64,000 nt of DNA. It comes from Kiritimatiellia bacterium. Lineage in GTDB: Bacteria; Verrucomicrobiota; Kiritimatiellia; RFP12; UBA1067. The stretch spans positions 5,515 to 69,514 of the forward strand of contig JBJEWF010000028.1 in NCBI GenBank assembly GCA_051884915.1, written 5' to 3'. Numbering within the stretch: the first letter of the stretch is position 1; each line of letters begins with the position of its first letter. Made by a program: the position numbers and the translations under genes. The notes below the pieces were generated by a model. It saw only the letters and a program-made list of their open reading frames with translations, made no database searches and had not been told where the DNA came from. Positions 15,389 through 50,710 of this stretch are shown here, piece after piece.

Positions 15389-16159
15389 CTACGCCTTCGT
15401 CCCATACACCTTTTCGTCGTGCCAGGCGGCGGCGCGCAGGTAGTGGCGGTTCATCTGCGCGATGTTGCGCACGGAAATGCCCTTCGGGCACGCCGCCTCG
15501 CAGGCGCGGACGTTGGTGCAGCCGCCGAAGCCTTCCGCGTCCATCTGCCTGACCATGGCCAGCACGCGGCGGTTCGCCTCGACGCGGCCCTGCGGCAGAT
15601 TCGCCAGGTGGCCGATCTTCGCCGCGGCGAACAGCATGGCCGACGCGTTCGGGCACGCCGCCACGCAGGCGCCGCAGCCGATGCAGGCCGCCGCGTCGAA
15701 CGCGCGGTCGGCCTCCTCCTTCGCGACCGGCGTCACGGCGGCATCCGGCGCCGCGCCCGTGTTCACGCTCACGTAGCCGCCCGCCTGGATGATGCGGTCG
15801 AAGGCGCTGCGGTCGATCACGCAGTCGCGCACGACCGGGAACGCGGCGGACCGGAACGGCTCGACCGTGATCGTGTCGCCGTCCTTGAACAGGCGCATGT
15901 GCAGCTGGCAGGTCGTCGTGCCGTAGTCGCGGCCGTGCGGCACGCCGTTGACGACGAGCGAGCACGTGCCGCAAATGCCCTCGCGGCAGTCGTGGTCGAA
16001 GGCGATCGGCTCGACGCCGCGCTTCATGCGCCGTTCGTTCATCACGTCCAGCATGTCCAGCAGGGACATGTCGGGCGAAACGTCCCCGACCTCTTCCGTC
16101 TCGAAGGCGCCCGGAGACGAAGCGTCCTTCTGGCGCCACATTCTAACGGTGACGTTCAT
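15389..16159 (-). CDS. sdhB: Succinate dehydrogenase/fumarate reductase iron-sulfur subunit
   Basis: 2Fe-2S motif CREGICGTC. 4Fe-4S/3Fe-4S motifs [12 protein letters not shown] and [17 protein letters not shown] overlap with sdhA. Confidence 0.93.
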
Positions 16160-18072: not shown

Positions 18073-18842
18073 GGTGTCGAGTTCTCCGCGTTCTTCAGTC
18101 GCGCCAGGCCCGGCTGGTCGCCCAGCGCCTTCCGGATCTGCGCCTGGCCGGCCGCCGTATGCGCGAGCGCGCACGTGCCGGCCGCCGTGCCGGCGAAACC
18201 GAGTCCCAGCGCAACCGCCAGCAGCCAGCCGCACAGGGCAAACGCCGGCGTCCATTTCGGATGATCGAGGCCAAACGTGCGGAAGAGCGAGGGAATCGCG
18301 TGGAACAGATGGGCACCGACGACCAGCAGCGCCAGGACGTAAAGCGCCGTGTAGACGGGATTGCCGAAGAACAGGACCGTCGTCAGCCACATGTCGCGGA
18401 CCAGTTCGCCGTCCGCGTCCCGGTACAGATAGCAGGTCCCGAACTTGAAGACGGCCAGATGCAGCACGACGAACAGGAGGATGACCAGGCCCGAGCCGTA
18501 CATCGTGTAGGACGCCGGCGTCGACGGCCCCACCGCGGCCGCGACCGCATAGCGGCGCGGGCCCGCGGCCTTGCGGTTCCGGAGCTTCAGCCCGGTCGCA
18601 AAGGCGACGTGCCACGCGAAGACGCCGGCGATGCCGGCTTCGACGAACCAGATGAGCGGCTTCAATCCCGTCAGGAACTTCGTGTAGGCGTTATAGGCCG
18701 CCTGCGCCGCCGCGGGATCCGGATTGAGCAGCTGCAGGTTGCCCAGCAGATGGCCGACCAGAAAGGCCACGAGCGCCGCGCCGGCCGCGCCCATCGACTG
18801 CTTGCCCCCGACCGAGGACTTCAGATAGCGGAGAAACCACAT
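18069..18842 (-). CDS. sdhC: Succinate dehydrogenase/fumarate reductase cytochrome b subunit (single-subunit, b558-type anchor)
   Basis: Five predicted TM helices with conserved His residues. C-A-B gene order as in Bacillus/Wolinella-type enzymes. ATGA overlap with sdhA. Confidence 0.8.
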
Positions 18843-18851
18843 CGCCCCACC

Positions 18852-20147
18852 CTAGCGTTCAAATGCCCGATGGGCGATGTCCTTCCGCGAAAACGCGCCG
18901 TCGAAGGCGATTTTCGCCACGCCCGCATAGGCCACGTCGACGGCCGTGCGCAAGTCGGCGCCCAGGCCCGTCACGCTCAGCACGCGGCCGCCCGCCGTCA
19001 CGACCCGTCCGTCGCGCACCGCCGTGCCGCAATGGAACACCGTCGCGCCCGCCGCCGCCGCGTCGTCCAGACCGGAGATGGCCTTGCCCTTGGCGTAGCC
19101 GCCCGGATAGCCGCCGGACGCGACGATCACGGTCGCCGCCGCCTCCGGCTTCACGACCACGTCGGCGTCCTTCAGGCAGCCCGTCGCCACGTGGAGAAGC
19201 GTTTCGGCGAAGTTGCCGCCCAGGCGGGGCAGCACCGCCTCCGTCTCCGGATCGCCAAAGCGCGCGTTGAATTCGACCACGTTGACCGGCGAGCCGCTCC
19301 GGGCCAGCCTGCCGCCCGCGGGCGTGACCATCAGCCCCGCATAGAGCACGCCGCGGTAGACGATGCCGCGCTTCTTCAGTTCGCGGACGACCGGCAGGAT
19401 GATCTTCTCCTTGATTTCGGGCAGCATGTCGGCGGATACGACCGGCGCCGGCGAGTAGGCGCCCATGCCGCCCGTGTTCGGCCCCCGGTCGCCGTCGAAC
19501 ACGCGCTTGTGGTCCTGCGAACTCGGCAGCAGCACGGCCGTCTCGCCGTCGACGAGCGCCAGGATCGAGCACTCCTCGCCTTCGAGAAACTCCTCGATCA
19601 GGACCTCGGCGCCCGCCGCGCCGAACTTGTTGCCCACGAGCATGTCGTCGATTGCCGCCTCGGCCTGTTCCGCCGTTTCCGCGACCACCACGCCCTTGCC
19701 CGCCGCCAGGCCATCGGCCTTGATGACGACGGGCAGGCCCCAGTCCGGCAGCGCGGCCTTGGCCGCCGCCGCGTCCGTAAACGTCCGGGCCCGCCCTGTC
19801 GGCACGCCGGCGGCCTCCATGACGGCCTTCGCGAACCGCTTCGAGCCTTCCATGCGCGCGCCGGCCCGGACCGGTCCGAACGCCGTCACGCCGGCCGCGT
19901 CCAGCGCGTCGACCAGCCCCTTGCAGAGCGGGGCTTCGGGACCGACGACCACGAGGTCGGGCCGGTTCGCCCGCGCCCACGCGACGAGGCCTTCCACGTC
20001 CTCGGCGTCCAGCGCCAGGTTCGTCGCCAACGCCGCCGTGCCCGCATTGCCCGGCGCGCAGAACAGCTCGTGCCGCTCCGCGTCCTGCGCCAGACGCCAC
20101 GTGATGGCGTGCTCGCGCCCGCCGCTTCCCACAACCAGAATCTTCAT
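18852..20147 (-). CDS. purD: Phosphoribosylamine-glycine ligase
   Basis: Trimmed to the ATG at 20147 (MKILVVGSGGREHA...). KADGLAAGKGV, EFNARFGDPE. GAGGAG lies 7 nt upstream. Confidence 0.93.
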   Translation of the reverse strand: MKILVVGSGGREHAITWRLAQDAERHELFCAPGNAGTAALATNLALDAEDVEGLVAWARANRPDLVVVGPEAPLCKGLVDALDAAGVTAFGPVRAGARMEGSKRFAKAVMEAAGVPTGRARTFTDAAAAKAALPDWGLPVVIKADGLAAGKGVVVAETAEQAEAAIDDMLVGNKFGAAGAEVLIEEFLEGEECSILALVDGETAVLLPSSQDHKRVFDGDRGPNTGGMGAYSPAPVVSADMLPEIKEKIILPVVRELKKRGIVYRGVLYAGLMVTPAGGRLARSGSPVNVVEFNARFGDPETEAVLPRLGGNFAETLLHVATGCLKDADVVVKPEAAATVIVASGGYPGGYAKGKAISGLDDAAAAGATVFHCGTAVRDGRVVTAGGRVLSVTGLGADLRTAVDVAYAGVAKIAFDGAFSRKDIAHRAFER

Positions 20148-20188
20148 GCGTCTTCTCCTCGATTTCCCATGCGTCCCGCGAGCCGCGC

Positions 20189-21625
20189 CTACAACGCGGC
20201 CAGTTTCCGGGCCACCAGCGGACCGACGATCTTCGGATCGGCCTTGCCGCCGGAAAGCTTCATGACCTGGCCGACGAAGAAACCCGCCGCCGCCTTCTTG
20301 CCGGCCTTGAAGTCCGCCACCGGTCCCGGATTGGCGGCAATCGCCCGGTCGACGTAGGCCTCCAGCGCCGCCGCGTCGGAGACGGCGCCCAGGCCGCGTT
20401 CCTTCACGATGGCTTCGGGATCGCCGCCGCGTTCGAAGAGCTCCGGCAGCAGCTCCTTGAGCGTCGGGCCGTTGATCGTGCCCCGGGCGGACAGCGAAAT
20501 CAGCGCGCGCAGCGCCTCGGGCGTCAGGGCGCATTCGCCGATTGCCTTGCCCGAGGCGTTCAGCAGCGCCAAAACGTCGCCCATGAACAGGTTGCAGAGC
20601 AGTTTCGCCGTCTTCTTGTCGAGGCCCTGCGCCGCCGCCTCGAAGTAGTCGGCGTTCGCCTTGTGCCGCGACAGGACGCCGGCGTCGTATTCGGCGATGC
20701 CGTACTGCTCGACCATGCGGGCGCGGCGGGCCTCCGGTTTCTCCGGCAGCAGGTTGCGCCAGCTCGCGACGAGATCCTCCGAAAGCTCCACGGGCACCAG
20801 ATCGGGCTCGGGGAAGTAGCGGTAGTCGTGGGCGTTCTCCTTCGAGCGCATCGCGACCGTCTCCAGGGACTCCGGGTCCCACCGGCGCGTTTCCTGGACA
20901 ATGGGAATCGAATGGGCCAGGCAGTCCCGCTGGCGGCGCGCCTCGTATTCGAGGGCCGCATGGATGTTGCCGAAGGAATTCATGTTCTTGATCTCGACCT
21001 TCGTGCCCAGCCGCTCCGCGCCGACGGGGCGGATCGAGATGTTCACGTCGGAGCGCATGTTGCCTTCTTCGAGATTGCAGTCCGAAACGCCCGCGTAGAC
21101 GAGCAGTTCCCTGAGCGCCGTCAGGTAGGCGATCGTCTCGTCCGCGTCGGAGAGGTCCGGCTCGCCGACAATCTCCATCAGCGGCGTGCCGCCGCGGTTG
21201 AAATCCACCCCCGACGTCGTCGCGTAGTGGTTGATTTTCGCCGCGTCCTCTTCCAGGTGGATGTGGTTGATGCGGATGAACTTCCTCGTGCCGTCCGCCT
21301 TCGTGATCTCCACGCCGCCGCCGAGGCACAGGGGGTTGCCGTTCTCGGAGATCTGGTAGTCCTTCGCCATGTCGGGATAGAAGTAGTTCTTGCGGTCGAA
21401 GGTGGCGTGCCGGTTGATCGTGCTGCCGAGCATCAGCCCGCTCATGACCGTCAGCCTGACGGCCTCCCTGTTCATGACCGGCAGGGCCCCCGGATAGCCC
21501 AGGCAGACGGGACACGTGTTCGTATTCGGCTCGCAGCCCGTCTGCAGCAGACAGCCGCAGAACATCTTCGTGCGCGTCTTCAGTTGGACGTGCGTCTCAA
21601 GTCCGATGTTGGTTTCGAATTCCAT
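20189..21625 (-). CDS. gatB: Asp-tRNA(Asn)/Glu-tRNA(Gln) amidotransferase subunit B
   Basis: Trimmed to the ATG at 21625 (MEFETNIGLETHVQLKTRTKMFCGC...). Full-length GatB similarity including the C-terminal YqeY-like tail. Confidence 0.93.
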   Translation of the reverse strand: MEFETNIGLETHVQLKTRTKMFCGCLLQTGCEPNTNTCPVCLGYPGALPVMNREAVRLTVMSGLMLGSTINRHATFDRKNYFYPDMAKDYQISENGNPLCLGGGVEITKADGTRKFIRINHIHLEEDAAKINHYATTSGVDFNRGGTPLMEIVGEPDLSDADETIAYLTALRELLVYAGVSDCNLEEGNMRSDVNISIRPVGAERLGTKVEIKNMNSFGNIHAALEYEARRQRDCLAHSIPIVQETRRWDPESLETVAMRSKENAHDYRYFPEPDLVPVELSEDLVASWRNLLPEKPEARRARMVEQYGIAEYDAGVLSRHKANADYFEAAAQGLDKKTAKLLCNLFMGDVLALLNASGKAIGECALTPEALRALISLSARGTINGPTLKELLPELFERGGDPEAIVKERGLGAVSDAAALEAYVDRAIAANPGPVADFKAGKKAAAGFFVGQVMKLSGGKADPKIVGPLVARKLAAL

Positions 21626-25232: not shown

Positions 25233-25943
25233 CTAGTTCCCGGCGTAGTCGATCGCCTCGCGGAAATACTTGATCGGCTTGCCGCAGACGGGGCAGAACT
25301 TCGGCGCTTCGGCGCCCACGGCGACATAGCCGCACGCGATGCACTCCCATTCCGTCTCGTCGTCGTCGGACTTGAAGAAGCCCGCGTCGAGCTTTTTGAC
25401 GAACGCGCGATAGCGCTTCTCGTGGCCGACCTCGGCCTTGGCGATCAGGCGGAAGAGCGTGGCGATTTCCTTGAAGCCCTCCTTGTCGGCGATCTTCGCG
25501 AACTCGGGATACATGATCTCATGCTCGTGGTTCTCGCCCTTCGCCGCCGCCAGGAGGTTTTCCTTCGTCGTGCCGATCTTGCCCGCCGGATAGCCGGCGT
25601 CGCCGAGCGTCAGTTCGTCGCCCGAATCGAGGCATGCGAAAAGCCGCGTCGCGTGCGCTTTCTCCTGTTCGGCGGTCTCGATGAAGATATCGTGGATCTG
25701 CACATATCCCTCCGCCTCCGCGCGTTCCGCGAAGATCGTGTAGCGCATGCGCGCCTGGCTTTCGCCGGCGAAGGCCTTGAGGAGACACTTCTCGGTTTCG
25801 GTGCCGCGCACGGAGCGCCCCTTGTTGATGGGCGACTTGTCGTCGGTTGTCGCGGTGGTGGGGATGGTGTGCGCCTCGGCGGACAGCGCGAGGCCGGCTG
25901 CGGCCAGCACGCCCAGCGAGAGGGCTTCACGACGGTTGATCAT
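25233..25943 (-). CDS. rbr: Rubrerythrin (erythrin four-helix bundle plus C-terminal rubredoxin-like CxxC...CxxC) with a Tat-type signal peptide
   Basis: Start chosen at 25943 (MINRREALSLGVLAAAGLALSAEA). Di-iron ligand motifs EQEKAH and EVGHEKR. C-terminal CIACGY...CPVCG. Confidence 0.85.
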   Translation of the reverse strand: MINRREALSLGVLAAAGLALSAEAHTIPTTATTDDKSPINKGRSVRGTETEKCLLKAFAGESQARMRYTIFAERAEAEGYVQIHDIFIETAEQEKAHATRLFACLDSGDELTLGDAGYPAGKIGTTKENLLAAAKGENHEHEIMYPEFAKIADKEGFKEIATLFRLIAKAEVGHEKRYRAFVKKLDAGFFKSDDDETEWECIACGYVAVGAEAPKFCPVCGKPIKYFREAIDYAGN

Positions 25944-26001
25944 AGGGTATTCTTTCCTTTCTTGTCGGTTGGAGTGATGGTTGGATTCATTCAAGATGTC
26001 A

Positions 26002-27462
26002 TCAGCCGAGATCCTTGGCGCGCGAAGCGTAGGACGTATGGAGCATCCGTTCGGCCTTTTCGCTCAGGGGCTTGCCGTAGAATTCGCGGTAGAGCGTCTG
26101 CACTTCGGCGTTCTCGTGCGATAGGCGCAACGTCGCGCGCGCGTCGTCGGCGTAAAGCGCATCGATGCGCGCCTGGCGCATCGCCCGGCTAAGGTAGGGC
26201 GCGGACTTCGCGCGCGGCTGCCCGCCGCCGCCGATGCAGCCGCCCTCGCAGGCCATCACTTCGATGAAAGTGGCCTTGAGTTGGCCCGATTTGACGCGGG
26301 CGATGACATCGCGGACGTTTGCGAGCCCGTGGACGACCACGAGCGTGACCTCCAGCCCCGGCTTGAGGGTCACCGTCGCCTTTTTGACGAACGCGCGTTT
26401 TTTCTTCGACCCGATGCCGCGCACCGGCTTGAATTCAAAGAGATCGGCCGGCGGATTCGTGCCGTTCACCATCCAGTACGCCGTGCGCACCGCCGCCTCC
26501 ATCACGCCGCCGGTGTTGCCGAAGATGATGCCCGCGCCGCTGGCCTCGCCCATGAGCGAATCGTACTTCGCGGGCTTGAGCGAAGCATAGTCGACTCCCT
26601 CGGCGCGCATCCAGTCCGCCAGCTCGCGGGTGGTGATGACCGCGTCCATGTCGCGGAAGCCCGAGTCGTTCATCTCCGGACGGCGGATTTCGAATTTCTT
26701 GGCCGTGCACGGCGTGAGCGCCACGTTGAAGATCTTGGCGGGATCGAGCCCGCGCTTGGCGGCGAAATATGTCTTGATGGTCGGCCCCTGCATGCCGATG
26801 GGACTTTTCGCCGTCGAGACGTGCGGCAGCATTTCGGGGTACCAGGTCTCGCAGAATTTGACCCAGGCCGGGCAGCAGCTCGTGAACTGCGGCACGGGCC
26901 GGTCGCCCGTCGTCACGCGCCGCACCAGCTCCGCCGCCTCCTCCATAATCGTGAGATCGGCGGCAAAACAGGTGTCGAGCACATAGTCGGCTCCGAGCGC
27001 GCGCAGTGCCGCGACGACCTCGCCTTCGCAGAACGTGCCCGGCGCAGCCCCGAACTCTTCCGCAAGCGCCACGCGCACCGACGGCGAGGTGGAGACGACA
27101 ATCGTCTTGCCGGCGGCCTTGGCGGCCTTCACCGCCTGCCATTCGGGACGGTTCACGAGGGCCGTGCCCTCGCAGACGGTCGTGCACTGTCCGCAATTGA
27201 CGCAGACCGGCACGTTGTTCGTCTTGGCCAGATCGTAGAAGCCGGCGACCGAAATCATCCGCTTGCAGACCGAAAGGCACGCGCCGCACTGGACGCATTT
27301 CGCCGCATCGAACGCGACCGACGGATTGTCGGCCGCCATCGGCACGCGGACGCTTCCGGCGGGTTCCGCCCAGAGCCGATGCGGGCACACCGCGCCCAAC
27401 GCCAACGCCGCCCCCGCGGTGCGCATCATCTCGCGCCGCCCCATCGTGCATGTTTCCGCCAT
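26002..27462 (-). CDS. hydA: Monomeric [FeFe]-hydrogenase catalytic subunit (two accessory 4Fe-4S clusters) with a Tat-type N-terminus
   Basis: H-cluster motifs TSCCPAW, TPCTAKKFE and EVMACEGGCIGGGGQP. Ferredoxin motifs CVQCGACLSVC and CVNCGQCTTVC. N-terminus MAETCTMGRREMMRTAGAALALGAV. AAGGAGG lies 5 nt upstream of the ATG at 27462. Confidence 0.9.
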   Translation of the reverse strand: MAETCTMGRREMMRTAGAALALGAVCPHRLWAEPAGSVRVPMAADNPSVAFDAAKCVQCGACLSVCKRMISVAGFYDLAKTNNVPVCVNCGQCTTVCEGTALVNRPEWQAVKAAKAAGKTIVVSTSPSVRVALAEEFGAAPGTFCEGEVVAALRALGADYVLDTCFAADLTIMEEAAELVRRVTTGDRPVPQFTSCCPAWVKFCETWYPEMLPHVSTAKSPIGMQGPTIKTYFAAKRGLDPAKIFNVALTPCTAKKFEIRRPEMNDSGFRDMDAVITTRELADWMRAEGVDYASLKPAKYDSLMGEASGAGIIFGNTGGVMEAAVRTAYWMVNGTNPPADLFEFKPVRGIGSKKKRAFVKKATVTLKPGLEVTLVVVHGLANVRDVIARVKSGQLKATFIEVMACEGGCIGGGGQPRAKSAPYLSRAMRQARIDALYADDARATLRLSHENAEVQTLYREFYGKPLSEKAERMLHTSYASRAKDLG

Positions 27463-27506
27463 CGTGACCTCCTTGATGTCTCCGGTTTCCGTTGCCGCCA
27501 GTGGAC

Positions 27507-28343
27507 TCACTTGATCGTGTAGCGCGTGGCCTTGACGAGCGCCTTCCAGAGGTCGGCCGGCGTCGCCGCCGCCAGCAGCGCGTCACGGTTCTCCCGCTTC
27601 GAGAAGGCCTCGCCGAGGCCGGCCATCAGGCGCAGATAGAACGCGCTGACCGCCACGGGAATCACGCTGAAGAAGATGAAATTGACCTTCGAGCCGCTGT
27701 CGTCGTAGACGATGCCCTCCCGCGACACGCCGAGCGCCAGCGTCAGGCCGCCGCCCTCGACGCCGCGGACGTGCGGGAACGCGATGCCCTTGCCCACGGC
27801 CGTCGACAGCACGCTCTCGCGCTCCATTGCCGCCGCCACGAGCGCGGCCGGATTCGAGACGAACCGGTTGGCCGCCATCGCGCCGGCCAGTTCGCGGATC
27901 GCCGCCTCCGTCGTCGTCGCCGCAAGGCGGCAGACCATCAGCTCTTCCGCCGAGAACCGGCTGATGCCCGTCTTGCGCGCCTCGCCGCGGGCCGGCTTCT
28001 CCGCCACGGAACGCGGCGCGTCCTCGTCCTCGTTGAACAGCATGCGCCCGCAGGAGGAGCACATCTGCATCGTCTTGGCCATGCGGACCTGCTGCACCTG
28101 CGAAATCGGCAGGCGCATGCCGCAGACGGCGCAGCAGCCGTTGACCATCGGCGACATCACGACATGGTCCTTCTTGTACAGGCGCTGGTAGAGCATCTTG
28201 CACCGCGCGTCGAGCTGCGCCGTCAGGGCGTCGATCGAATCGTTCAGGGAATCCAGATGCGAGCCGTCGCCCGTGGCGTGGTGCTCGTCGCGCGTCAGGA
28301 CGAGTTCCTGGAGCTGGTTGAGGAGATTGAGCTGGTTTTTCAT
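27507..28343 (-). CDS. Fusion protein: coiled-coil plus C4 zinc-ribbon (COG1579/HP0958-like) N-domain and PTS EIIA(Ntr)-type C-domain
   Basis: Trimmed to the ATG at 28343 (MKNQLNLLNQLQEL...). CAVCGMRLP...CSSCGRMLF zinc ribbon, then GKGIAFPHVRG, which is the EIIA-2 family phospho-His motif. Confidence 0.75.
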   Translation of the reverse strand: MKNQLNLLNQLQELVLTRDEHHATGDGSHLDSLNDSIDALTAQLDARCKMLYQRLYKKDHVVMSPMVNGCCAVCGMRLPISQVQQVRMAKTMQMCSSCGRMLFNEDEDAPRSVAEKPARGEARKTGISRFSAEELMVCRLAATTTEAAIRELAGAMAANRFVSNPAALVAAAMERESVLSTAVGKGIAFPHVRGVEGGGLTLALGVSREGIVYDDSGSKVNFIFFSVIPVAVSAFYLRLMAGLGEAFSKRENRDALLAAATPADLWKALVKATRYTIK

Positions 28344-28357
28344 GCCGTACCCCGGTT

Positions 28358-29038
28358 TCACCGCTGCGTATAGGTCCCGTCGACCTCTTCCCACGTCCGC
28401 GTGGCGAAGAACTCCGCGATGGCCGCGTCGTACTGGGCCGTGTGGGCGAACGCCTTCTTCATCAGCCGGAAGCGCGTGTCCAGCCCCAGCGTGCCGCCGC
28501 GGGCGTCCAGTTCGCTGGCGATGCTGCCGTAGTCGAGCGGGTCCGTGACCGAAGCCACGCGCAGATAGTTCTTCGCCGAGGCGCGCACCATGCAGGGGCC
28601 GCCGATGTCGATGTTCGTGCGCGCCATTTCCGGCGTCACGCCCGCCTGCGCCACCGTCTGCCGGAACGGATAGAGGTTGACGACGACCATGTCGATCGGC
28701 TGCGCGGCCAGGCGTTTCAGGTCCGCCTGGTGCGCCGCGTTGTAGGTCTCGCTCAGCAGCCCGAGATAGATCTTGAAGTCGAGCGTCTTCACGAGACCGC
28801 CCTGCATCTCCGGCTGCCCCGTGTAGTCGCTCACCGCGACGAGCGTCCCCGCGGCCGCGGCGCCGAGAATCTCCTTCACCTTCGCGTAGGTCCCGCCCGT
28901 CGAATAGATCCGCACGCCCGGACACGCCTTCACCAGCGCGGGCACGAACGCGTCCAGTCCCGTCTTGTCGGACACGCTCATCAGCACGTTTCTGACGGCA
29001 ACCCGGGAATCGATGTCCTTCACGATGTTCAACGCCAT
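28358..29038 (-). CDS. Stand-alone IMP cyclohydrolase (MGS-like N-domain of PurH); no AICAR formyltransferase domain
   Basis: LMSVSDKTG, STGGT, VKTL, VVVNLYPF, NIDIGGPCMVRASAKN and KKAFAHTAQYD all track the first ~200 residues of PurH. The ORF stops at 226 aa. Confidence 0.8.
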   Translation of the reverse strand: MALNIVKDIDSRVAVRNVLMSVSDKTGLDAFVPALVKACPGVRIYSTGGTYAKVKEILGAAAAGTLVAVSDYTGQPEMQGGLVKTLDFKIYLGLLSETYNAAHQADLKRLAAQPIDMVVVNLYPFRQTVAQAGVTPEMARTNIDIGGPCMVRASAKNYLRVASVTDPLDYGSIASELDARGGTLGLDTRFRLMKKAFAHTAQYDAAIAEFFATRTWEEVDGTYTQR

Positions 29039-29241: not shown

Positions 29242-32200
29242 CTAGCCGAAGAGGCGGTCGGGAATGAAGCAGCTCGCCACCACGTGCCCCTTCACCACGA
29301 CGGTGGCGACGGGAACGGTCCGTCCCGTGAACATCTTGAAGTTCTGGAGCCATTGCCCGCGCAGTTCGATTTCCAGCGCCCCGGTCTCCGCCTTGAAGGA
29401 GACGACCACCAGTTCGCGCGGGGAATAGCGGATGCCCGTGCCCAGGGCCTTCGACACGGCCTCCTTCGCGCACCAGAACCGGATGATCGCGCTGGGGGAG
29501 TCCACGGCGTTGACGGCCAGCTCCTGCTCTTCCGGCAGGAAGACGCCGTGCGTGAATTCGTCCGAGAGGCACCGGTCGGAGGCTTCCACGTCGACGCCGA
29601 CGCGCGCGTTCATCGCCGCCACGGCCAGGACGAAACGCGACGTGTGGGCAATGGAGACGTCCAGCCGCATGTTCTGCCACAGGTGTCCCTGCCAGGGGCC
29701 TTCCGTCAGCGGCTTGCCGCAGGGGTCCGTGTAGACCTGGACGTCGGCGTCGCTCCAGCGGGCCTGGTAGAACCGCTCCAGGAAGCGGCGGACGGCTTCC
29801 TTGGCCGCAATGCGCCCGAAAAGCCATTCCGTCCGCCGCGCCACGCCGCCCTTGGCCGCCATTTCGGAGAACTCGCGGCGCTCGTTGCGCCCCAGCACGA
29901 TGTGCGAAAGCGCCTTGAGCCACAGTTCCTCGTTCCGCTCGAACAGCGGGTAGTCGACGTCCGTCAGCATGGCCGACGCGATGGACGTGCCGGGCGAGCC
30001 CAGCCGGTCGTCCGGCAGATCCCGCGACAGATAGGTCCGCGCGGGCTCCAGGAGCAGACGGCGGTATTCGTCCGGCACCCGGACCGTCAGCTCCTCGTAG
30101 CCGTGCAGCTCCATCAGCAGGTTGCCGTTGCCGTCCGAAACGAAGATGTCCGCCACCAGCGAGGTCGGCGTCACCCCCGTATTGCGCAGGTAGCACTGCA
30201 GATGCGCGTTGTCGGGAATCGCGAGCTTGTGCAGCGTCAGCACGCGCAGGCGGAAGGCGTAGGACACCGCGCCCGCGAACCGTTCGTGGCTCCGCCACAG
30301 CTGGAAGCCGTCCGTCACCGCGGCCAGCAGTTGCGGATTCAGGACCCAGCAGGGCACGGTCGTGTGCCGGACCGCCTCGTCGGACGCGGGCACCACGACC
30401 TCGTAGTCCAGGCCCTCTTCGCTCCAGCGGTCCGCCTTGGCGATGCCCTGGAGCTGGCGGCCGGCGAACAGACGGTCCGGATAGATGTCGCATTGCGCCC
30501 AGTGGACATCGCGCGCTTTTTCGTGGGGCGGCGGCGTGAAGGCCACCGGCGCCACGTCGGCCTTCGTCAGCAGGAACGTGCCCTCCATCGCGGGCCACGT
30601 CCAGACGGAGTCCGGCGCGTCCTCGCGGATCTGGACGCGAACGGCGGTCCGCTTCGGATCGGACGACGCCACGTGTTCGGCCCGCACGAAGAGCTTCAGC
30701 CTGCCGTTCTGGAACGGCACCGTTCGCCGGCGCTGCAGATCGTCAATCGCCACCACGTGCAGGCCGGGCGTCAGCGTCTGGGCCAGTTCGGCCATGATTT
30801 CCGCCCCCATGACCAGCGTCAGGACGGTGAATCCGCGCAGCGGCGGCGCCGAACCGTCTCCATGCTCGGGGTGGGACAGCTGCGAGGTGCCCATGGCGAA
30901 ATCGGCCAGCAGCGGTTCCGAATCGAAGGAGAACACCTTCGAGATCTCGATCGACATGCTCGGCTGATAGGACTCGACGTTCATGTCGGAAATCAGCGGA
31001 TACGCGGCGCCGTAGCCGAACTGCTGCTGCCGCTGCCGGAGCCGCACGGCGGCGGCGCGGCGGCGCGCCGCCGCCCGGTCGCGCCGGTCCGGCGCGCTCT
31101 CCATCGTCGCCACCATGGCCGATCCCTCCAGCGAGGGCTTTTCCGTCAGCAGAAGAAGCCGCGGGAATTCGCGGGAGAGGCGCAGTTCCGTTTCGTTGCG
31201 GATGCTCAGCGCGAGCGGGGCGTCGAAGGGCAGCAGCCGGCACCGGCGCTGGCGGAAGAGCAGCGACGGGTCGACCGGCGCCCCCAGGGCCGCCAGCATG
31301 CCGACCACGTGCATCAGCTGCAGCAGACCCGCGCGGTGGATGGAGTCGGCGGCCAGCGCGACGTGCTCTTCGCCGTGAAGGACCTCGTCGACAAAGCCGC
31401 TGCACGTCCCCCGCGGACCGACCTCCAGAAAGACGCGAACGCCATCCGCGTGCATCCGGCGGATCGTCTCCTCGAACCGCACGGGCTCGACCCACTGCTC
31501 GGCCACGCCGTCGCGGACCTTGCGGACTTTCATCGGCAGGCGCTCCGCCGTCCCGCAGGAATAGACCGGGATGCGCGGCTTCTCGTCCACCCAGTTCGAC
31601 GCGAACTTCCGGAAGAGCGGCAGCACCGACCGGCACCACGGCGTGTTGAACGGGCGGTCGACCGAGAGGCGGTGGCTGCGGATGCCCAGGCCGGCCAGAC
31701 GGTGCAGGATGCCTTCGGCGTGTTCCGGATCGAACGCGACCGTCAGGTGCCGCGGCGAAAACCGGTAGGCGACGCTGGCCTGGTCCGCCGGCAGGTCCGC
31801 CAGCGCCGCGGCCGCCTGTTCCGGATGGGGCGAGACGAGCGAAACGAACAGGCATTTGGGCAGCCCGGCGTGGGAGACCGCCGTATTGACGACCTTGTAG
31901 ACCTCCTGGAGGAACTTCAGCCGGTCCTTGCGCTCGAATTTGCCCAGCAGCCCGCCCACGGCCAGCGCGCTCAGGTCGCCGCCCGAGAAACCCGTCGCGG
32001 CGTCCGGGACGATGCCCAGCGCCTGGAACATCCGCGTCAGCGCCAGGTTGGCGGAATAGGTCGACACCAGGGCCTCCGCATAGCCGCCGGCCGTGAACAC
32101 GTCCGCGTCCTGGCGATAGTGCGGCGCGGGGGGGAAGATGAACGAAGAGGGCTGAAACGGACCCTTGCCCTTCAGCGCCGACTCCAGCTCGTCGAAGGGC

Positions 32201-32619
32201 AGACGGCACTCGCGGAAGCGGACCGCCACCTCGCGCAGCATGTCGGGATAGAACGACATGGCCCCCGAATAGACGAACGCGAGCTTGCCGGTTCCGCCTT
32301 CGCCCAGAACGTGGCGGCGGAAGAAATAGGTCCCCGACCTGTCGCGAATCCGTTCCGTCCTTTCGTCCGCCAGACGCGCGGCGGCCGAAGCCAGACGGCC
32401 GCGCAGTTCGGCCGTGTCCGACGCCACGATCGCCAGCACGGCCGCCTGGCCGGGACCGAACTTCCGGGCGCACGTGTACGCGACGTCCCGCAGCTCGACG
32501 CTGGACACCTGGTCCAGAAACGCGATCAGGCCCTTGGCGTCCTGCGCCAGCTGGGCGACGCTGTCGGCGCCGAGGAGCACGAGTTCGCTGCCGAAGGACT
32601 CGCTGAAATCCGCGCTCAC
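29242..32619 (-). CDS. PKS-like multidomain protein: KS-AT linker, acyltransferase-like, polyketide-dehydratase-like, then Sfp-type 4'-phosphopantetheinyl transferase
   Basis: Track ORF 29242..33414 trimmed to the GTG at 32619 (VSADFSESFGSELVLLGADS...), with GGGGAGGAG 6 nt upstream. AT-like LAFVYSGAMSFYPDM and GFSGGD. DH-like YPLIS...LADFAMG. PPTase motifs VSIAHTS, VGVDVE and WCAKEAVSKALG. Confidence 0.85.
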   Translation of the reverse strand: MSADFSESFGSELVLLGADSVAQLAQDAKGLIAFLDQVSSVELRDVAYTCARKFGPGQAAVLAIVASDTAELRGRLASAAARLADERTERIRDRSGTYFFRRHVLGEGGTGKLAFVYSGAMSFYPDMLREVAVRFRECRLPFDELESALKGKGPFQPSSFIFPPAPHYRQDADVFTAGGYAEALVSTYSANLALTRMFQALGIVPDAATGFSGGDLSALAVGGLLGKFERKDRLKFLQEVYKVVNTAVSHAGLPKCLFVSLVSPHPEQAAAALADLPADQASVAYRFSPRHLTVAFDPEHAEGILHRLAGLGIRSHRLSVDRPFNTPWCRSVLPLFRKFASNWVDEKPRIPVYSCGTAERLPMKVRKVRDGVAEQWVEPVRFEETIRRMHADGVRVFLEVGPRGTCSGFVDEVLHGEEHVALAADSIHRAGLLQLMHVVGMLAALGAPVDPSLLFRQRRCRLLPFDAPLALSIRNETELRLSREFPRLLLLTEKPSLEGSAMVATMESAPDRRDRAAARRRAAAVRLRQRQQQFGYGAAYPLISDMNVESYQPSMSIEISKVFSFDSEPLLADFAMGTSQLSHPEHGDGSAPPLRGFTVLTLVMGAEIMAELAQTLTPGLHVVAIDDLQRRRTVPFQNGRLKLFVRAEHVASSDPKRTAVRVQIREDAPDSVWTWPAMEGTFLLTKADVAPVAFTPPPHEKARDVHWAQCDIYPDRLFAGRQLQGIAKADRWSEEGLDYEVVVPASDEAVRHTTVPCWVLNPQLLAAVTDGFQLWRSHERFAGAVSYAFRLRVLTLHKLAIPDNAHLQCYLRNTGVTPTSLVADIFVSDGNGNLLMELHGYEELTVRVPDEYRRLLLEPARTYLSRDLPDDRLGSPGTSIASAMLTDVDYPLFERNEELWLKALSHIVLGRNERREFSEMAAKGGVARRTEWLFGRIAAKEAVRRFLERFYQARWSDADVQVYTDPCGKPLTEGPWQGHLWQNMRLDVSIAHTSRFVLAVAAMNARVGVDVEASDRCLSDEFTHGVFLPEEQELAVNAVDSPSAIIRFWCAKEAVSKALGTGIRYSPRELVVVSFKAETGALEIELRGQWLQNFKMFTGRTVPVATVVVKGHVVASCFIPDRLFG

Positions 32620-33986
32620 TGCCGCTCCTCCCCTTCGGGCTCCTCTTCCATGACCACCGCCGCCTTCCGTCCGCCCGGCTCGCCCGCCAGCACCATGGCG
32701 CGCCGCGGGGAGGAGGGGTCGCCCGTGATCCACGGCCGCGCCTCGTTCAGCAGGTAGACGGACGACCCGCGGCTGGACAGCACGGCGAGAGGATTCGCGA
32801 CGGGCATCTGCGGCGGCAGAATCCGGCGCCAGAGGGCGATGGCGATCTTCAGCAGGCTGGCCGCCGCCTCCGCCCGGAAGCAGTGCCCCACGTTGCCCTT
32901 CACCGAACCGATTCCCACCAGGGCGCCGCCCGGGAGATGGTCGCCCCACGCCCGCTGCAGGGCGACGACCTCCTCCTCGTCGGCCGCGGGCGTTCCGTAG
33001 CCTTCGGCCTCGACCAGCCCGATCGAGTGGAAATCGACCTGGGCGCGGTCGACGGCCGCCGCCAGCGCCTCGTCGATCGAGACCGCGCCGCAGGAGACGC
33101 CGCGGATCAGCGCATAGATCCGGTCGTTCGCCGCCAGCGCGTCCGCCTCGCGCTTGAGGACGAAGAACGCGCCGCCCTCGCCGGGCAGCGTCCCGGCGGC
33201 ATGCCGGTCGAACGGCAGCAGGTCCGGCTCCTCCGAAAAGTCCATTTCGCCCGAAACGCCTTCGAGCAGCGACCGGCTCAGCGGCGGCGTGAGCGCGCCC
33301 GCCAGGGCCACGTCGGCGCGGCCGCTCCGCAAATCGTCCATCGCCGCGCGCAGGGAGGCCACGCCGCTGAGCACGCCGCCGTCCAGCGTCGTCGCGCCGC
33401 CGGAAAACGAGCACTCGCGCGCGATCCAGTCGGCAATGCGGTGTCCGCTTCCGGCAAGGAAGCTCGCCGCGTTCGGCGCCGGCAGCGATTCGACCAGTTT
33501 CACGCGAATCTGCTCCATCGCCTCGCTCGGGGCCGTGCGGAAGAACTTCGCGATGATGTCCATGGTCTGGTCGATGAAATGCGTGTGCAGCAGCCAGTTG
33601 ACCGTCGACGCGTTGAAGGGCGGCGCGTAGCCGAAGCGCACCGTTCCCCGCTGGCGCTCCCGGCCATGGGGCCGCAGACCGGCGTCCAGCAGCGCGTCAA
33701 AGGCCAACTGCACGGCAAAATACAGGTCCTGGTTCTCGCCGGCGTTGATCTGGCGGGGGAAGTTCTGCTCGCCGGGCTCGCAGGCGTAGAGTTCGCCCAG
33801 CAGACCGCCGTGGCGGGGATAGGGGCGGGCGAACAGCGTGGCCGCCTCGGGCAGCAAACCGCTCTCCACGGGAAAGGGGGCGATGCCGCTCTTCTGGTGC
33901 ATGACCATGCGCCAGAAAGCCCCGGGATCCGGCGCCTTGGCAAAACGGCAGGAAACGCCAATGATCGCTATTGGTGTGTTTTGCAC
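32616..33986 (-). CDS. Ketosynthase-like protein lacking the active-site Cys (KS0)
   Basis: Track ORF 32616..34619 trimmed to the GTG at 33986 so that the conserved KS N-terminus IAIIGVSCRFA is kept. TLDGGVLSGVASL replaces [20 protein letters not shown] replaces EAHGTGT. GSVKGNVGH is retained. Confidence 0.8.
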   Translation of the reverse strand: MQNTPIAIIGVSCRFAKAPDPGAFWRMVMHQKSGIAPFPVESGLLPEAATLFARPYPRHGGLLGELYACEPGEQNFPRQINAGENQDLYFAVQLAFDALLDAGLRPHGRERQRGTVRFGYAPPFNASTVNWLLHTHFIDQTMDIIAKFFRTAPSEAMEQIRVKLVESLPAPNAASFLAGSGHRIADWIARECSFSGGATTLDGGVLSGVASLRAAMDDLRSGRADVALAGALTPPLSRSLLEGVSGEMDFSEEPDLLPFDRHAAGTLPGEGGAFFVLKREADALAANDRIYALIRGVSCGAVSIDEALAAAVDRAQVDFHSIGLVEAEGYGTPAADEEEVVALQRAWGDHLPGGALVGIGSVKGNVGHCFRAEAAASLLKIAIALWRRILPPQMPVANPLAVLSSRGSSVYLLNEARPWITGDPSSPRRAMVLAGEPGGRKAAVVMEEEPEGEERQ

Positions 33987-33990
33987 CCGC

Positions 33991-34836
33991 CTAGTATAGC
34001 ATACCCAGCACGCGCCGAAGAAATTTTTCGGGGGTCGACGCGCCCGCCGTGACGCCCAGCCGGCACACGGACGAGAAGTCGCACGCGGCCACGTCCTCGA
34101 CCCTCCCGGCCTGCCAGGCCCGGGCCCCCTCCGCCCGCGCGATCTCGGCCAGCCGCCGCGTGTTGGAGGAATGCGCGCTTCCCAGCACCAGAACGCCGTC
34201 GCCGCCCGCCCGCACGAACCGGCGAACGGCCTCCTGCCGGTCCTTCGTGGCCGTGCAGACGTCGGCGGCGGCCGGCGTCTCCACCGCCACTCCGCGGGCG
34301 CGCAGGGCCGCCACGACGGCCTGGATGGTCTCGCCGGCCAGCGTCGTCTGGCTGACGATCCCCGCCGCCGCCACCGGAGGCAGTTCCGCCACGTCCGCCG
34401 CCGCGCCGACAATCGCCCCCCGTCCGCCCGCGGCCACGACCTCTCCCCACACGCCGCCGACCTCCACGTGGTCGGCGTGGCCGACCACGACGACGAACAG
34501 CCCCCGCGCCACGTAGTCGTGGACCTGGCGGTGGGCCCGCCAGACGAACGGACACGTCGCATCGACGACCCGGAGCGCGCGGGACGCGGCGATCGCCCGC
34601 GTGGCCGGGGACACGCCATGGGCGGAGAACATCACCTGCGCGCCGCAGGGAACCGCGCGGATGTCGTCGACGAACCGCATCCCCTGCGCCTTCAGCCCGG
34701 CGATGACGGCCTCGTTGTGCACGAGTTCATGCAGACAGTAGACCGGTCCCGGCATGGAAAGGGCGTGAAGCGCCCGTTCCACGGCGGCCTTCACGCCCGA
34801 GCAGAAGCCATGCGGCTCAAGGACCTCGACGGTCAC
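33991..34836 (-). CDS. ispH: 4-hydroxy-3-methylbut-2-enyl diphosphate reductase
   Basis: GFCSGV, HELVHN, SAHGV, DATCPFV, SQTT and SSNT motifs. GTG start overlapping the mazG stop (GTGA). Confidence 0.92.
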   Translation of the reverse strand: MTVEVLEPHGFCSGVKAAVERALHALSMPGPVYCLHELVHNEAVIAGLKAQGMRFVDDIRAVPCGAQVMFSAHGVSPATRAIAASRALRVVDATCPFVWRAHRQVHDYVARGLFVVVVGHADHVEVGGVWGEVVAAGGRGAIVGAAADVAELPPVAAAGIVSQTTLAGETIQAVVAALRARGVAVETPAAADVCTATKDRQEAVRRFVRAGGDGVLVLGSAHSSNTRRLAEIARAEGARAWQAGRVEDVAACDFSSVCRLGVTAGASTPEKFLRRVLGMLY

Positions 34837-36349: not shown

Positions 36350-37600
36350 TCATTCCGGCTTCGTTTTCACCACGACGCGCGTCTTGCGCGGCTTGGGCTG
36401 GCCGATCTCGTCCAGCAGCTTGCGGAACCGGCTGTTGCGCACGTTGAAGGGCTTGCCGCCCCTGATCCGGTTGAATTCGCACGCGCGGATCTCGTTCTTC
36501 CGGTCCTCGTCCTTGCCGATCACGCCGCCGACGCGCGCCAGCGCGCATTCGACGGCCTTCACCGCGCACTGGCGGATCAGGCGCAGGTCCTTCTTGTTCG
36601 GCGCGGCCGCACGGGCGAAATAGCCGCTCTTGAACACGCTGGCCTTCTCGGCGCCCAGACGCTTCGCGAACTGGTTCTTGAACCACTCGCCCACGTTGAC
36701 GCTGTCCAGCCGGGGATGGCCGAAGGCGTCCAGCGGGACGTCCTCGCCGGCTTTCCGCTTCTCCTCGATGATCTGCTTCACGCAGGCGCCTTCGGAAACG
36801 AAGATGTTCACGCAGTCGACCGCGTCCATGACCTTGCGCAGACGCTCGGCCTCCTTGTCGAAATCGATTTTCGACTCCGGCACGTACACGGCATGCACGT
36901 CCTGGCGCTCGCGCGTCAGGCCGAATTCCGGCAGGAAGCGGATGCGCCGCTTCAGCATCTTGTGGTAGGCGATGGCCGTGAACGCCGTCAGCCAGCCGCA
37001 GTTGCGGCCCATGACTTCGTGGATGATCAGCGCGCGCGGATTGGCGCTGTTTTCCTTGACGACGTTCGCGAAGAACTTCGCGCCCTCTTCGGCGGCCGTG
37101 TAGGCGCCCAGCGACTGCTTGATCGGATAGACGTCGTTGTCGATCGTCTTGGGAAGGCCGACCACCGTCAGCGGATAGTCGTTCTCCGCCAGATACTTCG
37201 CGAGATCGGCGGCCGTCGTGTTCGTATCGTCGCCGCCGATCGTGTGGAGAACGTCGACGCCGTCCTTCACGAGCTGCTCGGCCGCCACCTTCAACGGGTC
37301 CTCGCCGTCCTTCACCAGACCGCGCTTCACGCAGTCCTTGACGTTCGTCAGCTTCACGCGGCTGTTGCCGATCGGGCTGCCGCCATGGCGCGTCAGCTCC
37401 AGCGCGTTCGCGCGCACGGCGGGCGTCACGGGAATCGAATCGCCCTTGAGAAGCCCCATGTAGCCGTTGACATAGCCGATCATCTCGACCTCGGGAGCCT
37501 GCTTCGTGTACTCGTCGATCAGAAATCCGATCGAGGAACTCAAGCAGGGAGCCAGGCCGCCCGCCGTCAGAAACGCAACTTTCTTAACTTTCTTGTCCAT
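36350..37600 (-). CDS. pfp: Pyrophosphate-dependent 6-phosphofructokinase
   Basis: Trimmed to the ATG at 37600. TIGGDDTNT and PKTIDND carry the Asp and Lys that replace the two Gly of ATP-PFKs, which is the PPi-type signature. Confidence 0.85.
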   Translation of the reverse strand: MDKKVKKVAFLTAGGLAPCLSSSIGFLIDEYTKQAPEVEMIGYVNGYMGLLKGDSIPVTPAVRANALELTRHGGSPIGNSRVKLTNVKDCVKRGLVKDGEDPLKVAAEQLVKDGVDVLHTIGGDDTNTTAADLAKYLAENDYPLTVVGLPKTIDNDVYPIKQSLGAYTAAEEGAKFFANVVKENSANPRALIIHEVMGRNCGWLTAFTAIAYHKMLKRRIRFLPEFGLTRERQDVHAVYVPESKIDFDKEAERLRKVMDAVDCVNIFVSEGACVKQIIEEKRKAGEDVPLDAFGHPRLDSVNVGEWFKNQFAKRLGAEKASVFKSGYFARAAAPNKKDLRLIRQCAVKAVECALARVGGVIGKDEDRKNEIRACEFNRIRGGKPFNVRNSRFRKLLDEIGQPKPRKTRVVVKTKPE

Positions 37601-37650
37601 TTTCTTTGTCCTTTTCCTAAGTCTTCGGCTGGCTTGCGCCAACCGCACAA

Positions 37651-50625: not shown

Positions 50626-50710
50626 GTTCGTCTGCTCCACCTTCTGCCTCCTACCTTTTGCCGTCGGGAAGTCTGCCCGCCGTTCGCGCACAAAACCCCC
50701 AGCGATTCAA

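Follow-up and report, generated by a model that had tools for sequence, protein, structure and literature searches.

A split ketosynthase, acyltransferase and dehydratase module with lost active sites, fused to an intact-looking phosphopantetheinyl transferase in Kiritimatiellia

The enediyne polyketide synthases (PKSE) are iterative type-I synthases with a phosphopantetheinyl transferase (PPTase) integrated directly after the dehydratase (DH) domain, and PcpS of Pseudomonas aeruginosa, an Sfp-type, free-standing enzyme of about 240 amino acids (aa), is the sole PPTase of that organism and serves primary metabolism. PKSE have been described elsewhere (PMC3107222, PMC9682884), and PPTases fused to PfaC or PfaBC have been reported for Pseudoalteromonas sp. 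DS-12, Aquimarina, Flavobacterium and Renibacterium (PMC3098273; bioRxiv 10.1101/2025.10.24.682833). In this study, we have analysed a pair of genes in a 64,000-nucleotide (nt) stretch of a Kiritimatiellia bacterium (contig JBJEWF010000028.1, positions 5,515 to 69,514; the window), which together encode ketosynthase (KS), acyltransferase (AT), DH and PPTase domains. The KS, AT and DH domains have lost their active sites, and, judged by its sequence, the one live-looking enzyme in the pair is an Sfp-type PPTase with intact motifs. We propose, with moderate confidence, that the pair is a housekeeping synthase of holo-acyl carrier protein (holo-ACP) built on a pseudo-enzyme scaffold.

Both genes lie on the minus strand. 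The first (33986 to 32616) begins with GTG and encodes a 456-aa PfaA-type ketosynthase-like protein without nucleophile, KS0, the zero marking here and below a domain that has lost its active site. The second (ORF2, the second open reading frame; 32619 to 29242) encodes 1125 aa in the order linker-AT-DH-PPTase. The stop codon of the KS0 gene and the start codon of the AT0-DH0-PPTase gene overlap in GTGA at 32616 to 32619; this overlap, noted in the first-pass annotation and suited to translational coupling, is real by reading of the sequence, and the Shine-Dalgarno-like GGGGAGGAG (32625 to 32633) lies 5 nt before the GTG of the second gene, and not 6 nt as had been claimed. The same 4-nt overlap is found in loci L001, L003, L015, L016, L019, L022, L023 and L025 of those compared.

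KS0 matches the N- and C-terminal ketoacyl-synt models of Pfam (PF00109, 84 bits; PF02801, 69 bits) and KS domains in the PDB, with E-values down to 1e-38, and has both domains of a thiolase-fold KS. The best NCBIfam model is PfaA (TIGR02813), of PfaA-type KS-AT; the PfaB model TIGR02816 is not matched (15.1 bits vs a cut-off of 144.3), and no curated NCBIfam model spans the whole architecture, which PfaA, polyketide synthase (PKS) and FabD models match partially. In the second protein, a KS-AT linker domain (residues 1-100; 32320 to 32619) is recognised by Pfam CurL-like_PKS_C at residues 13-74, is modelled by AlphaFold2 (AF2) with a predicted local distance difference test score (pLDDT) of ~90, and is aligned by Foldseek to KS-AT didomains; this fold normally packs against a KS. 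It is followed by AT0 (residues 101-460; 31240 to 32319), which matches Acyl_transf_1 (PF00698, 36 bits, cut-off 32.7) over residues 191-415 and was also placed by PDB alignments, motif tables and Foldseek, by a low-complexity linker (residues 461-540; 31000 to 31239), by DH0 (residues 541-880; 29980 to 30999) and by the PPTase domain (residues 881-1125; 29245 to 29979). DH0 gives only 18 bits with the Pfam PS-DH model, below its cut-off, but many homologues carry precomputed PS-DH matches, and its AF2 model shows the strand and helix topology of a double hot-dog.

The AF2 model of the second protein, computed with 63 homologues as input, has a mean pLDDT of 84 and is confident throughout linker-AT, double hot-dog and PPTase, with the exception of low-confidence loops at residues 163-172 and 580-593. 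Foldseek matched it to KS-AT-DH modules of PKSs (CalA3, E 5e-30; 890-976 columns aligned) and to isolated AT domains at a template-modelling score of ~0.8. The models thus support the presence of an AT fold and of a double-hot-dog DH fold, and profile alignments, structure prediction and family comparison agree on the first-pass proposal of a split type-I module resembling a PKS or polyunsaturated fatty acid (PUFA) synthase, with KS, linker, AT, DH and PPTase.

To read the active sites, we aligned the proteins with HMMER to PKSs of solved structure and to intact relatives of the pair (148-sequence alignment); in the latter alignment, the degenerate motifs stand in exact register with the intact ones. 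In KS0, the Cys of the Cys-His-His triad is replaced by Val205 (codon at 33372-33374) and the first His by Glu328 (33003-33005), the second His being retained as His368 (32883-32885); the C-terminal GGxNAH reads GGRKAA. In AT0, GHSxG (GHSxGE in the intact relatives) has become GFSGG, with Ser212; the catalytic His of YHTP/AFHS has become Asn325 in PFNT (R(P/A)YHTP against RPFNTP in the window protein), and the oxyanion Gln is gone together with its motif (GEGSQ to GAMSF; PGEGSQY against SGAMSFY). DH0 has lost both its catalytic His, now Phe574 (LxDHTLG to LADFAMG), and its catalytic Asp, now Ala766 (LLDAAGQ against LLAAVTD), and FHGP reads FAGR (FHGPxFQ against FAGRQLQ). The inactive KS and DH of the first-pass annotation are therefore borne out, the former by alignment both to PDB ketosynthases and to the family and the latter by the motif tables, which add the loss of the Asp. 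As for the AT, the change of His to Asn holds, but the retention of its Ser, also claimed, is an accident of this sequence: Ser212 is not conserved in the family, where the consensus is GFAGG, with Ala.

The replacing residues are themselves variable. Where the intact relatives have the KS Cys, the proteins related to the window pair that have lost their active sites (the dead clade, defined below) have V, P, F, I, M, T, A, G, S or N; the AT Ser position is occupied by A, G, V, S, M or R, and the DH His position by F, Y, S, A, C or G. That these residues differ from lineage to lineage indicates relaxed selection on the chemistry.

The PPTase domain presents the opposite picture. Pfam ACPS (PF01648) is matched at 50.5 bits, above the cut-off of 25, together with a weak 4PPT_N match, and the motifs GKP, IAHT, VGVDVE and FWCAKEAVSKALG are all intact and invariant in the family, in agreement with the first-pass view that the fused PPTase is intact. 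The catalytic set (GKP at 968-970, His992, Asp1010, Glu1012, Lys1052, Glu1053 and Lys1057) comprises the GxDxE, WxxKEAxxK, (S/A)H and GKP residues of Sfp-type PPTases; it is invariant in 63 family members, and positions 1010, 1012 and 1053 are Asp, Glu and Glu in all 81 dead-clade loci in which the match covers them. The two halves of the domain align separately to AcpS and to the phosphopantetheinyl transferase (PPT) domain of fungal fatty acid synthase (FAS), as expected of a two-half, Sfp-type member of the ACPS family; the best PDB sequence match of a PPTase half is the fungal FAS PPT domain 4v58 (E 1.4e-4).

Conservation within the family points to the same domain. In the dead clade, mean pairwise identity is 0.47 for PPT, 0.35 for AT and 0.34 for DH, and in the intact family it is 0.44 for AT, 0.36 for PPT and 0.35 for DH: the best-conserved domain is the AT in the intact family and the PPTase in the dead clade, constraint having shifted to the PPTase. 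Twelve residues are conserved in the dead clade only, eight of them in the PPTase domain and four in AT0 or DH0, and this share of the PPTase would fit a switch to another client protein.

Neither gene contains an ACP, a ketoreductase (KR) or an enoyl reductase (ER), and none was found in the 64-kb window by Pfam on the called ORFs or by a six-frame motif scan, in which the DSL motif gave two matches, both due to chance. The first-pass annotation had likewise found no carrier protein, KR or ER, and had named the region of residues ~470-560 as a place where an ACP might still be detected. We rejected an ACP in the 461-540 linker: Pfam is blank there, and AF2 (pLDDT 28-57 overall) shows it as mostly disordered, with pLDDT <50 at residues 469-514 and 531-536 and a single helix at 515-534 (pLDDT ~50-57). 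Some intact relatives have an ACP, carrying LGIDSIKRIEILG, at the very position of this linker. In addition, 18 of 21 loci of intact relatives have a discrete ACP gene (Pfam PP-binding) within the next 600 nt downstream, as do 5/5 probable fragments; no ACP gene was found downstream in any of the 73 dead-clade loci whose sequence reaches past the stop codon, in a tblastn search of 108 loci with E. coli AcpP and the discrete ACP of the intact family. A PfaD/PfaA-like partner was found neither within 6-10 kb at the 13 dead-clade places listed nor in the window. The pair thus has none of the adjacent discrete ACP, the PfaD/PfaA-like partner and the active sites that go with a working synthase subunit. 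A tblastn search with E. coli AcpS, covering ~10 kb around each locus and the window, matched only the PPTase domain of the pair itself, in a sample far too small to call acpS absent.

Both proteins belong to sizeable families. KS0 has 659 database relatives, named 'polyketide synthase [Kiritimatiellia]', of which the best 120 are essentially full length and the closest have 427-480 aa; the second protein has 546, the best 120 being 1084-1139 aa long and 49-90% identical, and its named relatives are labelled Kiritimatiellia or Kiritimatiellae (phylum Kiritimatiellota, of the Planctomycetes-Verrucomicrobia-Chlamydiae (PVC) group). In 17 genomic copies that were compared, the frame is uninterrupted and has no internal stops, and the pairwise ratio of nonsynonymous to synonymous substitution rates (dN/dS, omega) ranges from 0.01 to 0.24 in every one of the four regions (linker, AT, DH and PPTase). 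Omega in AT0 and DH0 is 0.04-0.15, near the value of the PPTase. Frameshifted homologues, which the first-pass annotation had named as the mark of a decaying gene, were not seen; the homologues are uninterrupted and under purifying selection.

The origin of the pair can be traced in the wider family. An exhaustive, profile-free phmmer search gave 820 representatives at E<=1e-30 that are co-linear over residues 5-1120, with homology and domain order both preserved. In the relatives at 24-34% identity, the AT and DH sites are intact, as is the KS site where a KS is fused, and the architectures are AT-DH-PPT (~1100 aa), AT-ACP-DH-PPT (~1300 aa), KS-AT-DH-PPT (~1600 aa) and KS-AT-ACP-DH-PPT (1800-2000 aa); those with names belong to Poribacteria, Deltaproteobacteria, Caldilineae and Acidobacteria. 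In a neighbor-joining tree of 116 representatives, the 13 without the DH His form one clade, and AT Ser, AT His and DH His are present in all of the other 103. The inactivated proteins are thus a single monophyletic, decayed branch nested in a large intact KS-AT-(ACP)-DH-PPTase family, and not an orphan combination. The first-pass annotation had not recognised the combination; its comparison with PfaB plus PfaE and with PKSE was nevertheless a good lead, as the nearest intact relatives are PfaA-like subunits of Pfa-like clusters.

Decay is graded within the branch. The DH His is missing in all members of the dead clade. In deep members (28-46% identical to the window protein), the AT His is often still there and the AT Ser in some cases, and their KS partners read Ala/Gly/Thr/Ser-His-His, with Cys-His-His still present in L019. 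In the gut and rumen crown group, to which the window belongs, the AT His is gone, as are the KS Cys and the first KS His and, mostly, the AT Ser. The clade has in turn near-invariant motifs of its own, without counterpart in the intact relatives, namely FPPAPYYRHDAD in AT0 (ORF2 residues 160-175, ~32095-32142 on the minus strand, in a low-confidence loop) and NFPRQxNAGENQDLYF in KS0 (residues 74-91), which could be interfaces or a new functional site.

In the window, the KS0 gene starts 4 nt after the stop codon of the co-oriented ispH (33991-34836, minus strand; Pfam LYTB, 238 bits), as the first-pass annotation had it, but ispH stands beside the pair in no other locus examined. We therefore rejected a link to isoprenoid synthesis and take the adjacency, which is not conserved, to be incidental and without functional signal. 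In L015, dxs and ispF are found within 10 kb, which does not recur elsewhere. KS0 lies directly upstream of the second gene in 49 of the 57 dead-clade loci with enough upstream sequence; the eight others comprise a sub-lineage that is 62-64% identical, L045 and, possibly, L058. In L004-L007, L030 and L032 (and L045), the AT0-DH0-PPTase gene stands alone with its own upstream region, no KS0 being found within up to 10 kb, and KS0 is thus dispensable in cis.

The sole recurrent neighbour of the pair from outside is pantothenate/coenzyme A (CoA) biosynthesis. In 14 of the 51 dead-clade loci with enough upstream sequence, all of them in the deeper sub-clade (35-46% identity), panB is directly upstream of KS0, in a panB-KS0-AT0-DH0-PPTase unit (L052, L053, L055-L057, L059, L065, L070, L075, L081, L083, L019, L020 and L022), panB and KS0 being 1-11 nt apart in L019, L020 and L022, the three loci for which genes were called. 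In L016, a stand-alone coaC is found ~19 nt upstream of the pair. Neither panB nor coaC was found upstream in nine loci of the intact family. This association fits an enzyme that uses CoA as a substrate. In several panB-unit loci, the KS reads Ala/Gly/Thr-His-His and the AT keeps Ser and His, a pattern like that of a KSQ-AT loading didomain. The remaining neighbours are variable housekeeping genes (ispH, hisC, phoU, rluA-like, aroQ and pfk).

All together, these results allow us to propose how the pair may have arisen and what it may do. In the ancestor, the PPTase would have served the synthase's own ACPs. Loss of the synthase partner and of the adjacent ACP gene would then have shifted selection to the PPTase, retained most plausibly because it had become a housekeeping holo-ACP synthase, and the KS, AT and DH active sites would have decayed stepwise. 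The KS, linker-AT and DH part is a non-catalytic scaffold, the fossil of a PfaA-like polyketide or secondary-lipid synthase subunit. Purifying selection has kept its KS, AT and DH folds, presumably because they support the PPTase structurally, in oligomerisation or in the docking of ACP. The GTGA overlap would ensure co-translation of the two proteins, which would assemble like a KS-AT didomain, the linker domain and the post-AT linker of the second protein packing on KS0. With CoA as donor, the PPTase would load 4'-phosphopantetheine onto apo-carrier proteins whose genes lie elsewhere in the genome, the likeliest client being AcpP of fatty acid synthesis, so that the pair would act as the housekeeping holo-ACP synthase of the lineage.

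Several observations weigh against a housekeeping PPTase on a passive scaffold. Some KS and AT chemistry may persist in deep lineages, in which AT Ser and His ('SHY' loci, P0126) and a KS X-His-His are kept. About 1300 scaffold residues, at an omega of ~0.05-0.15 throughout the class, are constrained more tightly than one would clearly expect of a passive scaffold, and this hints at an extra function, be it binding, regulation or new chemistry. The panB link is limited to the deeper sub-clade and missing from that of the window, and panB and coaC perhaps represent only two independent events. That the PPTase is active, which client it serves and what the scaffold does are moreover what we infer from sequence comparison. 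We hold the proposal at even confidence because the constraint on the inactive folds exceeds what a passive scaffold would clearly require and because activity, client and status as sole PPTase are predictions. Two simpler accounts of the lost active sites can be set aside. Alignment error is conceivable in proteins this divergent (AT at 36 bits, DH below cut-off), and the domains might then be active with catalytic residues at shifted positions, but this is highly improbable: in independent HMMER runs the motifs align gap-free to solved structures, GHSxG, YHTP, LxDHTLG, FHGP, LLDAAGQ and DAACASS of the 103 intact relatives are in register with the degenerate motifs, and no family-conserved Cys, His or Ser lies nearby, nor were catalytic residues found at any of the alternative positions that the first-pass annotation had allowed for. 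As both sets of alignments concur, misaligned active sites were rejected. The idea that the pair is a decaying pseudogene, the remnant of a lost polyketide pathway whose open frame is accidental, draws on the destruction of all three PKS-type active sites and the absence of pathway partners; it has practically no probability left, since the ~4.7-kb frame is unbroken and conserved in >500 clusters at 28-90% identity, and since the 17 genes without internal stops combine low dN/dS in each domain with conserved translational coupling. We rejected it on the uninterrupted homologues and the purifying selection.

The remaining alternatives concern what the inactive domains are for. We consider it unlikely that the pair is an essential non-catalytic subunit, comparable to a chain-length factor (CLF) or PfaB, of an active polyketide or PUFA-like synthase encoded elsewhere, whose ACPs the PPTase would activate. 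Its ancestors were subunits of two-protein Pfa-like synthases, inactive KS partners such as CLF and KS0 are a known device, deep members keep the KS His-His and the AT Ser and His, and the inactive domains are under strong purifying selection. However, the 6-10 kb around the listed dead-clade places and the window gave no PKS, ACP, KR or ER gene, the neighbours are housekeeping genes and panB/coaC instead of lipid or polyketide tailoring genes, the residues that replace the active sites are unconserved, unlike the Gln of CLF, and KS0 is unlinked or absent in one sub-lineage. Equally doubtful, to our mind, is a neofunctionalised module in which the inactive domains serve as an ACP chaperone, provide a new catalytic site made of clade-specific residues, or sense acyl-ACP, malonyl-CoA or lipid and gate the PPTase accordingly; selection would then maintain this role and not mere support of the PPTase. 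The PPTase-like omega of AT0 and DH0 (0.04-0.15) argues for it, as do invariant clade motifs away from the old sites, in AT0 (FPPAPYYRHDAD and RPFNT), DH0 (WRSHERF) and KS0 (NFPRQxNAGENQDLYF and RFGYAPPFNxSTVNWLxHT), and deep members with KS Ala/Gly/Thr-His-His and intact AT resemble, by analogy, KSQ-AT loading didomains, which are malonyl decarboxylases. On the other hand, no new candidate catalytic constellation can be identified from the sequence, only 4 of the 12 dead-clade-specific residues are in AT0 or DH0, the conserved motifs may be mere interfaces, and the neighbourhoods indicate no ligand or pathway beyond pantothenate/CoA. A bolder form of the holo-ACP synthase proposal, which we rate as improbable, would make the inactive KS, AT and DH an exapted carrier-recognition or regulatory platform that is obligatory for an essential PPTase. 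The pair would then be a holo-ACP synthase embedded in a pseudo-synthase, a new class of PPTase and the sole one of Kiritimatiellota, replacing AcpS, and it might couple ACP activation to pantothenate/CoA supply (through the panB operon) or to an acyl-ACP/malonyl-CoA status sensed in the fossil pockets.

If the holo-ACP synthase proposal is true, nature would offer in this pair a clear case of an entire multi-domain megasynthase module that became a pseudo-enzyme, while one embedded auxiliary enzyme was kept and took over a core cellular job, with the intermediates of decay visible in living lineages. An essential holo-ACP synthase may then hide under labels such as 'polyketide synthase' or 'PPTase superfamily protein' in a little-studied PVC phylum, abundant in gut and rumen. 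Genome-mining software would rate these loci as PKS-like biosynthetic clusters, and almost certainly no polyketide is made. The pair also makes it possible to ask what non-catalytic KS, AT and DH folds serve, for instance carrier-protein docking.

The comparison has also brought a second family to attention, the large intact KS-AT-(ACP)-DH-PPTase lipid synthases of Acidobacteria, Chloroflexi, Poribacteria and Deltaproteobacteria. Their clusters, apparently an uncharacterised type and very large (L017, 967-25508; L018, 798-25028; also L027, L028 and L076-L108), have the order ER(NMO)-KS-AT-ACP2-KR-DH, KS-AT-(ACP)-DH-PPTase, a discrete ACP of ~100 aa (PP-binding at 24.0 and 20.8 bits, cut-off 20.8) and then tailoring genes, among them a phosphodiesterase-family gene, an alpha/beta hydrolase, two to four short-chain dehydrogenases/reductases, a methyltransferase, glycosyltransferases and sometimes a sulfotransferase. 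An identity with the 'swf' cluster of sponge symbionts was considered and rejected: SwfA is KS-AT-DH-ER-KR-ACP, SwfB a reductase-sulfotransferase, and there is no PPTase fusion (PMC3908369).

Other features of the window were noted in passing. Downstream of the pair, a 226-aa ORF (28358-29038, minus strand) holds the IMP-cyclohydrolase (MGS-like) part of PurH and the first ~64 positions of AICARFT; the gene that comes next downstream is unrelated, which suggests a truncated or split purH. At 29097-29069 there is a promoter-like site with an extended -10. Further along the minus strand are a C4 zinc-ribbon fused to a phosphotransferase-system EIIA-2 domain (PtsN-like; 27507-28343, the gene lying inside a longer spurious ORF) and an [FeFe]-hydrogenase (25233-27510; large and small subunit and ferredoxin domains) that adjoins a rubrerythrin; hydrogenase, rubrerythrin and a pfp-type phosphofructokinase (36350-37648) indicate a fermentative anaerobe. 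The longest purD ORF (18852-21515, minus strand; 887 aa) has GARS domains at residues 457-883 only, and in an 818-aa ORF for a fumarate-reductase/succinate-dehydrogenase flavoprotein (16159-18615, minus strand) the FAD domain starts at residue 217; these long, domain-free N-terminal extensions are probably over-extended starts, in a high-GC sequence, or unrecognised upstream genes. A 1520-aa protein (46129-50691, minus strand) has a PATR autotransporter-associated repeat as its sole domain match, and similar giant PATR proteins are found near the pair in L016 and L022. The window has a G+C content of ~66%, and its ~37 confidently called genes are without exception encoded on the minus strand. 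In nearly all 2-kb bins of window positions 1-64000 the GC skew is below zero, and its cumulative value drops steadily, which, with the co-oriented genes, suggests that the window lies on one replichore.

With respect to known systems, the pair is closest to the intact KS-AT-(ACP)-DH-PPTase family, whose members are full-length homologues of the window protein (27-33% identity, E ~1e-80 to 1e-130) and share with it the domain order, including the C-terminal DH-PPTase fusion, the optional KS | AT-DH-PPTase split and the PfaA-type KS-AT (TIGR02813 as the best NCBIfam model). Unlike the pair, they keep their own KS Cys-His-His, AT Ser and His and DH His (103/103 representatives), and they are accompanied by a PfaD-PfaA-like ER-KS-AT-ACP2-KR-DH gene, tailoring genes and a discrete ACP, none of which is found in the clade of the window. 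We found no description of this exact intact architecture in the literature searched, nor one of the window protein in a search on Kiritimatiellota PPTases, integrated PPTases, PKS pseudo-enzymes and the hglE-KS of Kiritimatiellia. The published PfaC-PPTase fusions differ in being KS-CLF-DH2, with FabA-type DH, as opposed to KS-AT-DH with a PS-type DH here. In the case of PKSE (KS-AT-ACP-KR-DH-PPTase), which we compared by description, the placing of the PPTase right behind the DH is shared, but PKSE have their own ACP and KR and active domains throughout, the PPTase activating the ACP of its own chain, whereas neither ORF of the pair has a PP-binding or KR domain, and KS, AT and DH are inactive.

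The individual parts also have counterparts. CLF/KSbeta, KSQ, the KS0 of trans-AT systems and the KS-like domain of PfaB are, like KS0, thiolase-fold ketosynthases without Cys that act as structural or auxiliary partners, and KSQ and CLF resemble the deep members of the dead clade in keeping His-His. In these systems, however, the inactive KS works beside live domains and an ACP, and the replacing residue is usually conserved (Gln in KSQ and CLF), whereas in the dead clade the Cys position is hypervariable, the first His is lost in the sub-clade of the window and there is no live PKS domain. The PPTase is a two-half, Sfp-type enzyme with GxDxE and WxxKEAxxK like those of the PcpS type, with which it would share, as proposed here, a fatty-acid ACP as client; it differs from these free-standing enzymes in being fused to ~880 residues of inactive AT-DH and coupled to an inactive KS. 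In the alpha subunit of fungal type-I FAS, a PPT domain is likewise found at the C-terminus of a megasynthase chain, but there the domain is a single AcpS-like unit, placed after an active KS, and its substrate is the ACP of its own chain, as opposed to a two-half, Sfp-type domain that follows an inactive DH in a chain without ACP. Undescribed in the literature searched, the pair is thus a well-conserved combination of known parts, an integrated PPTase and a non-condensing KS.

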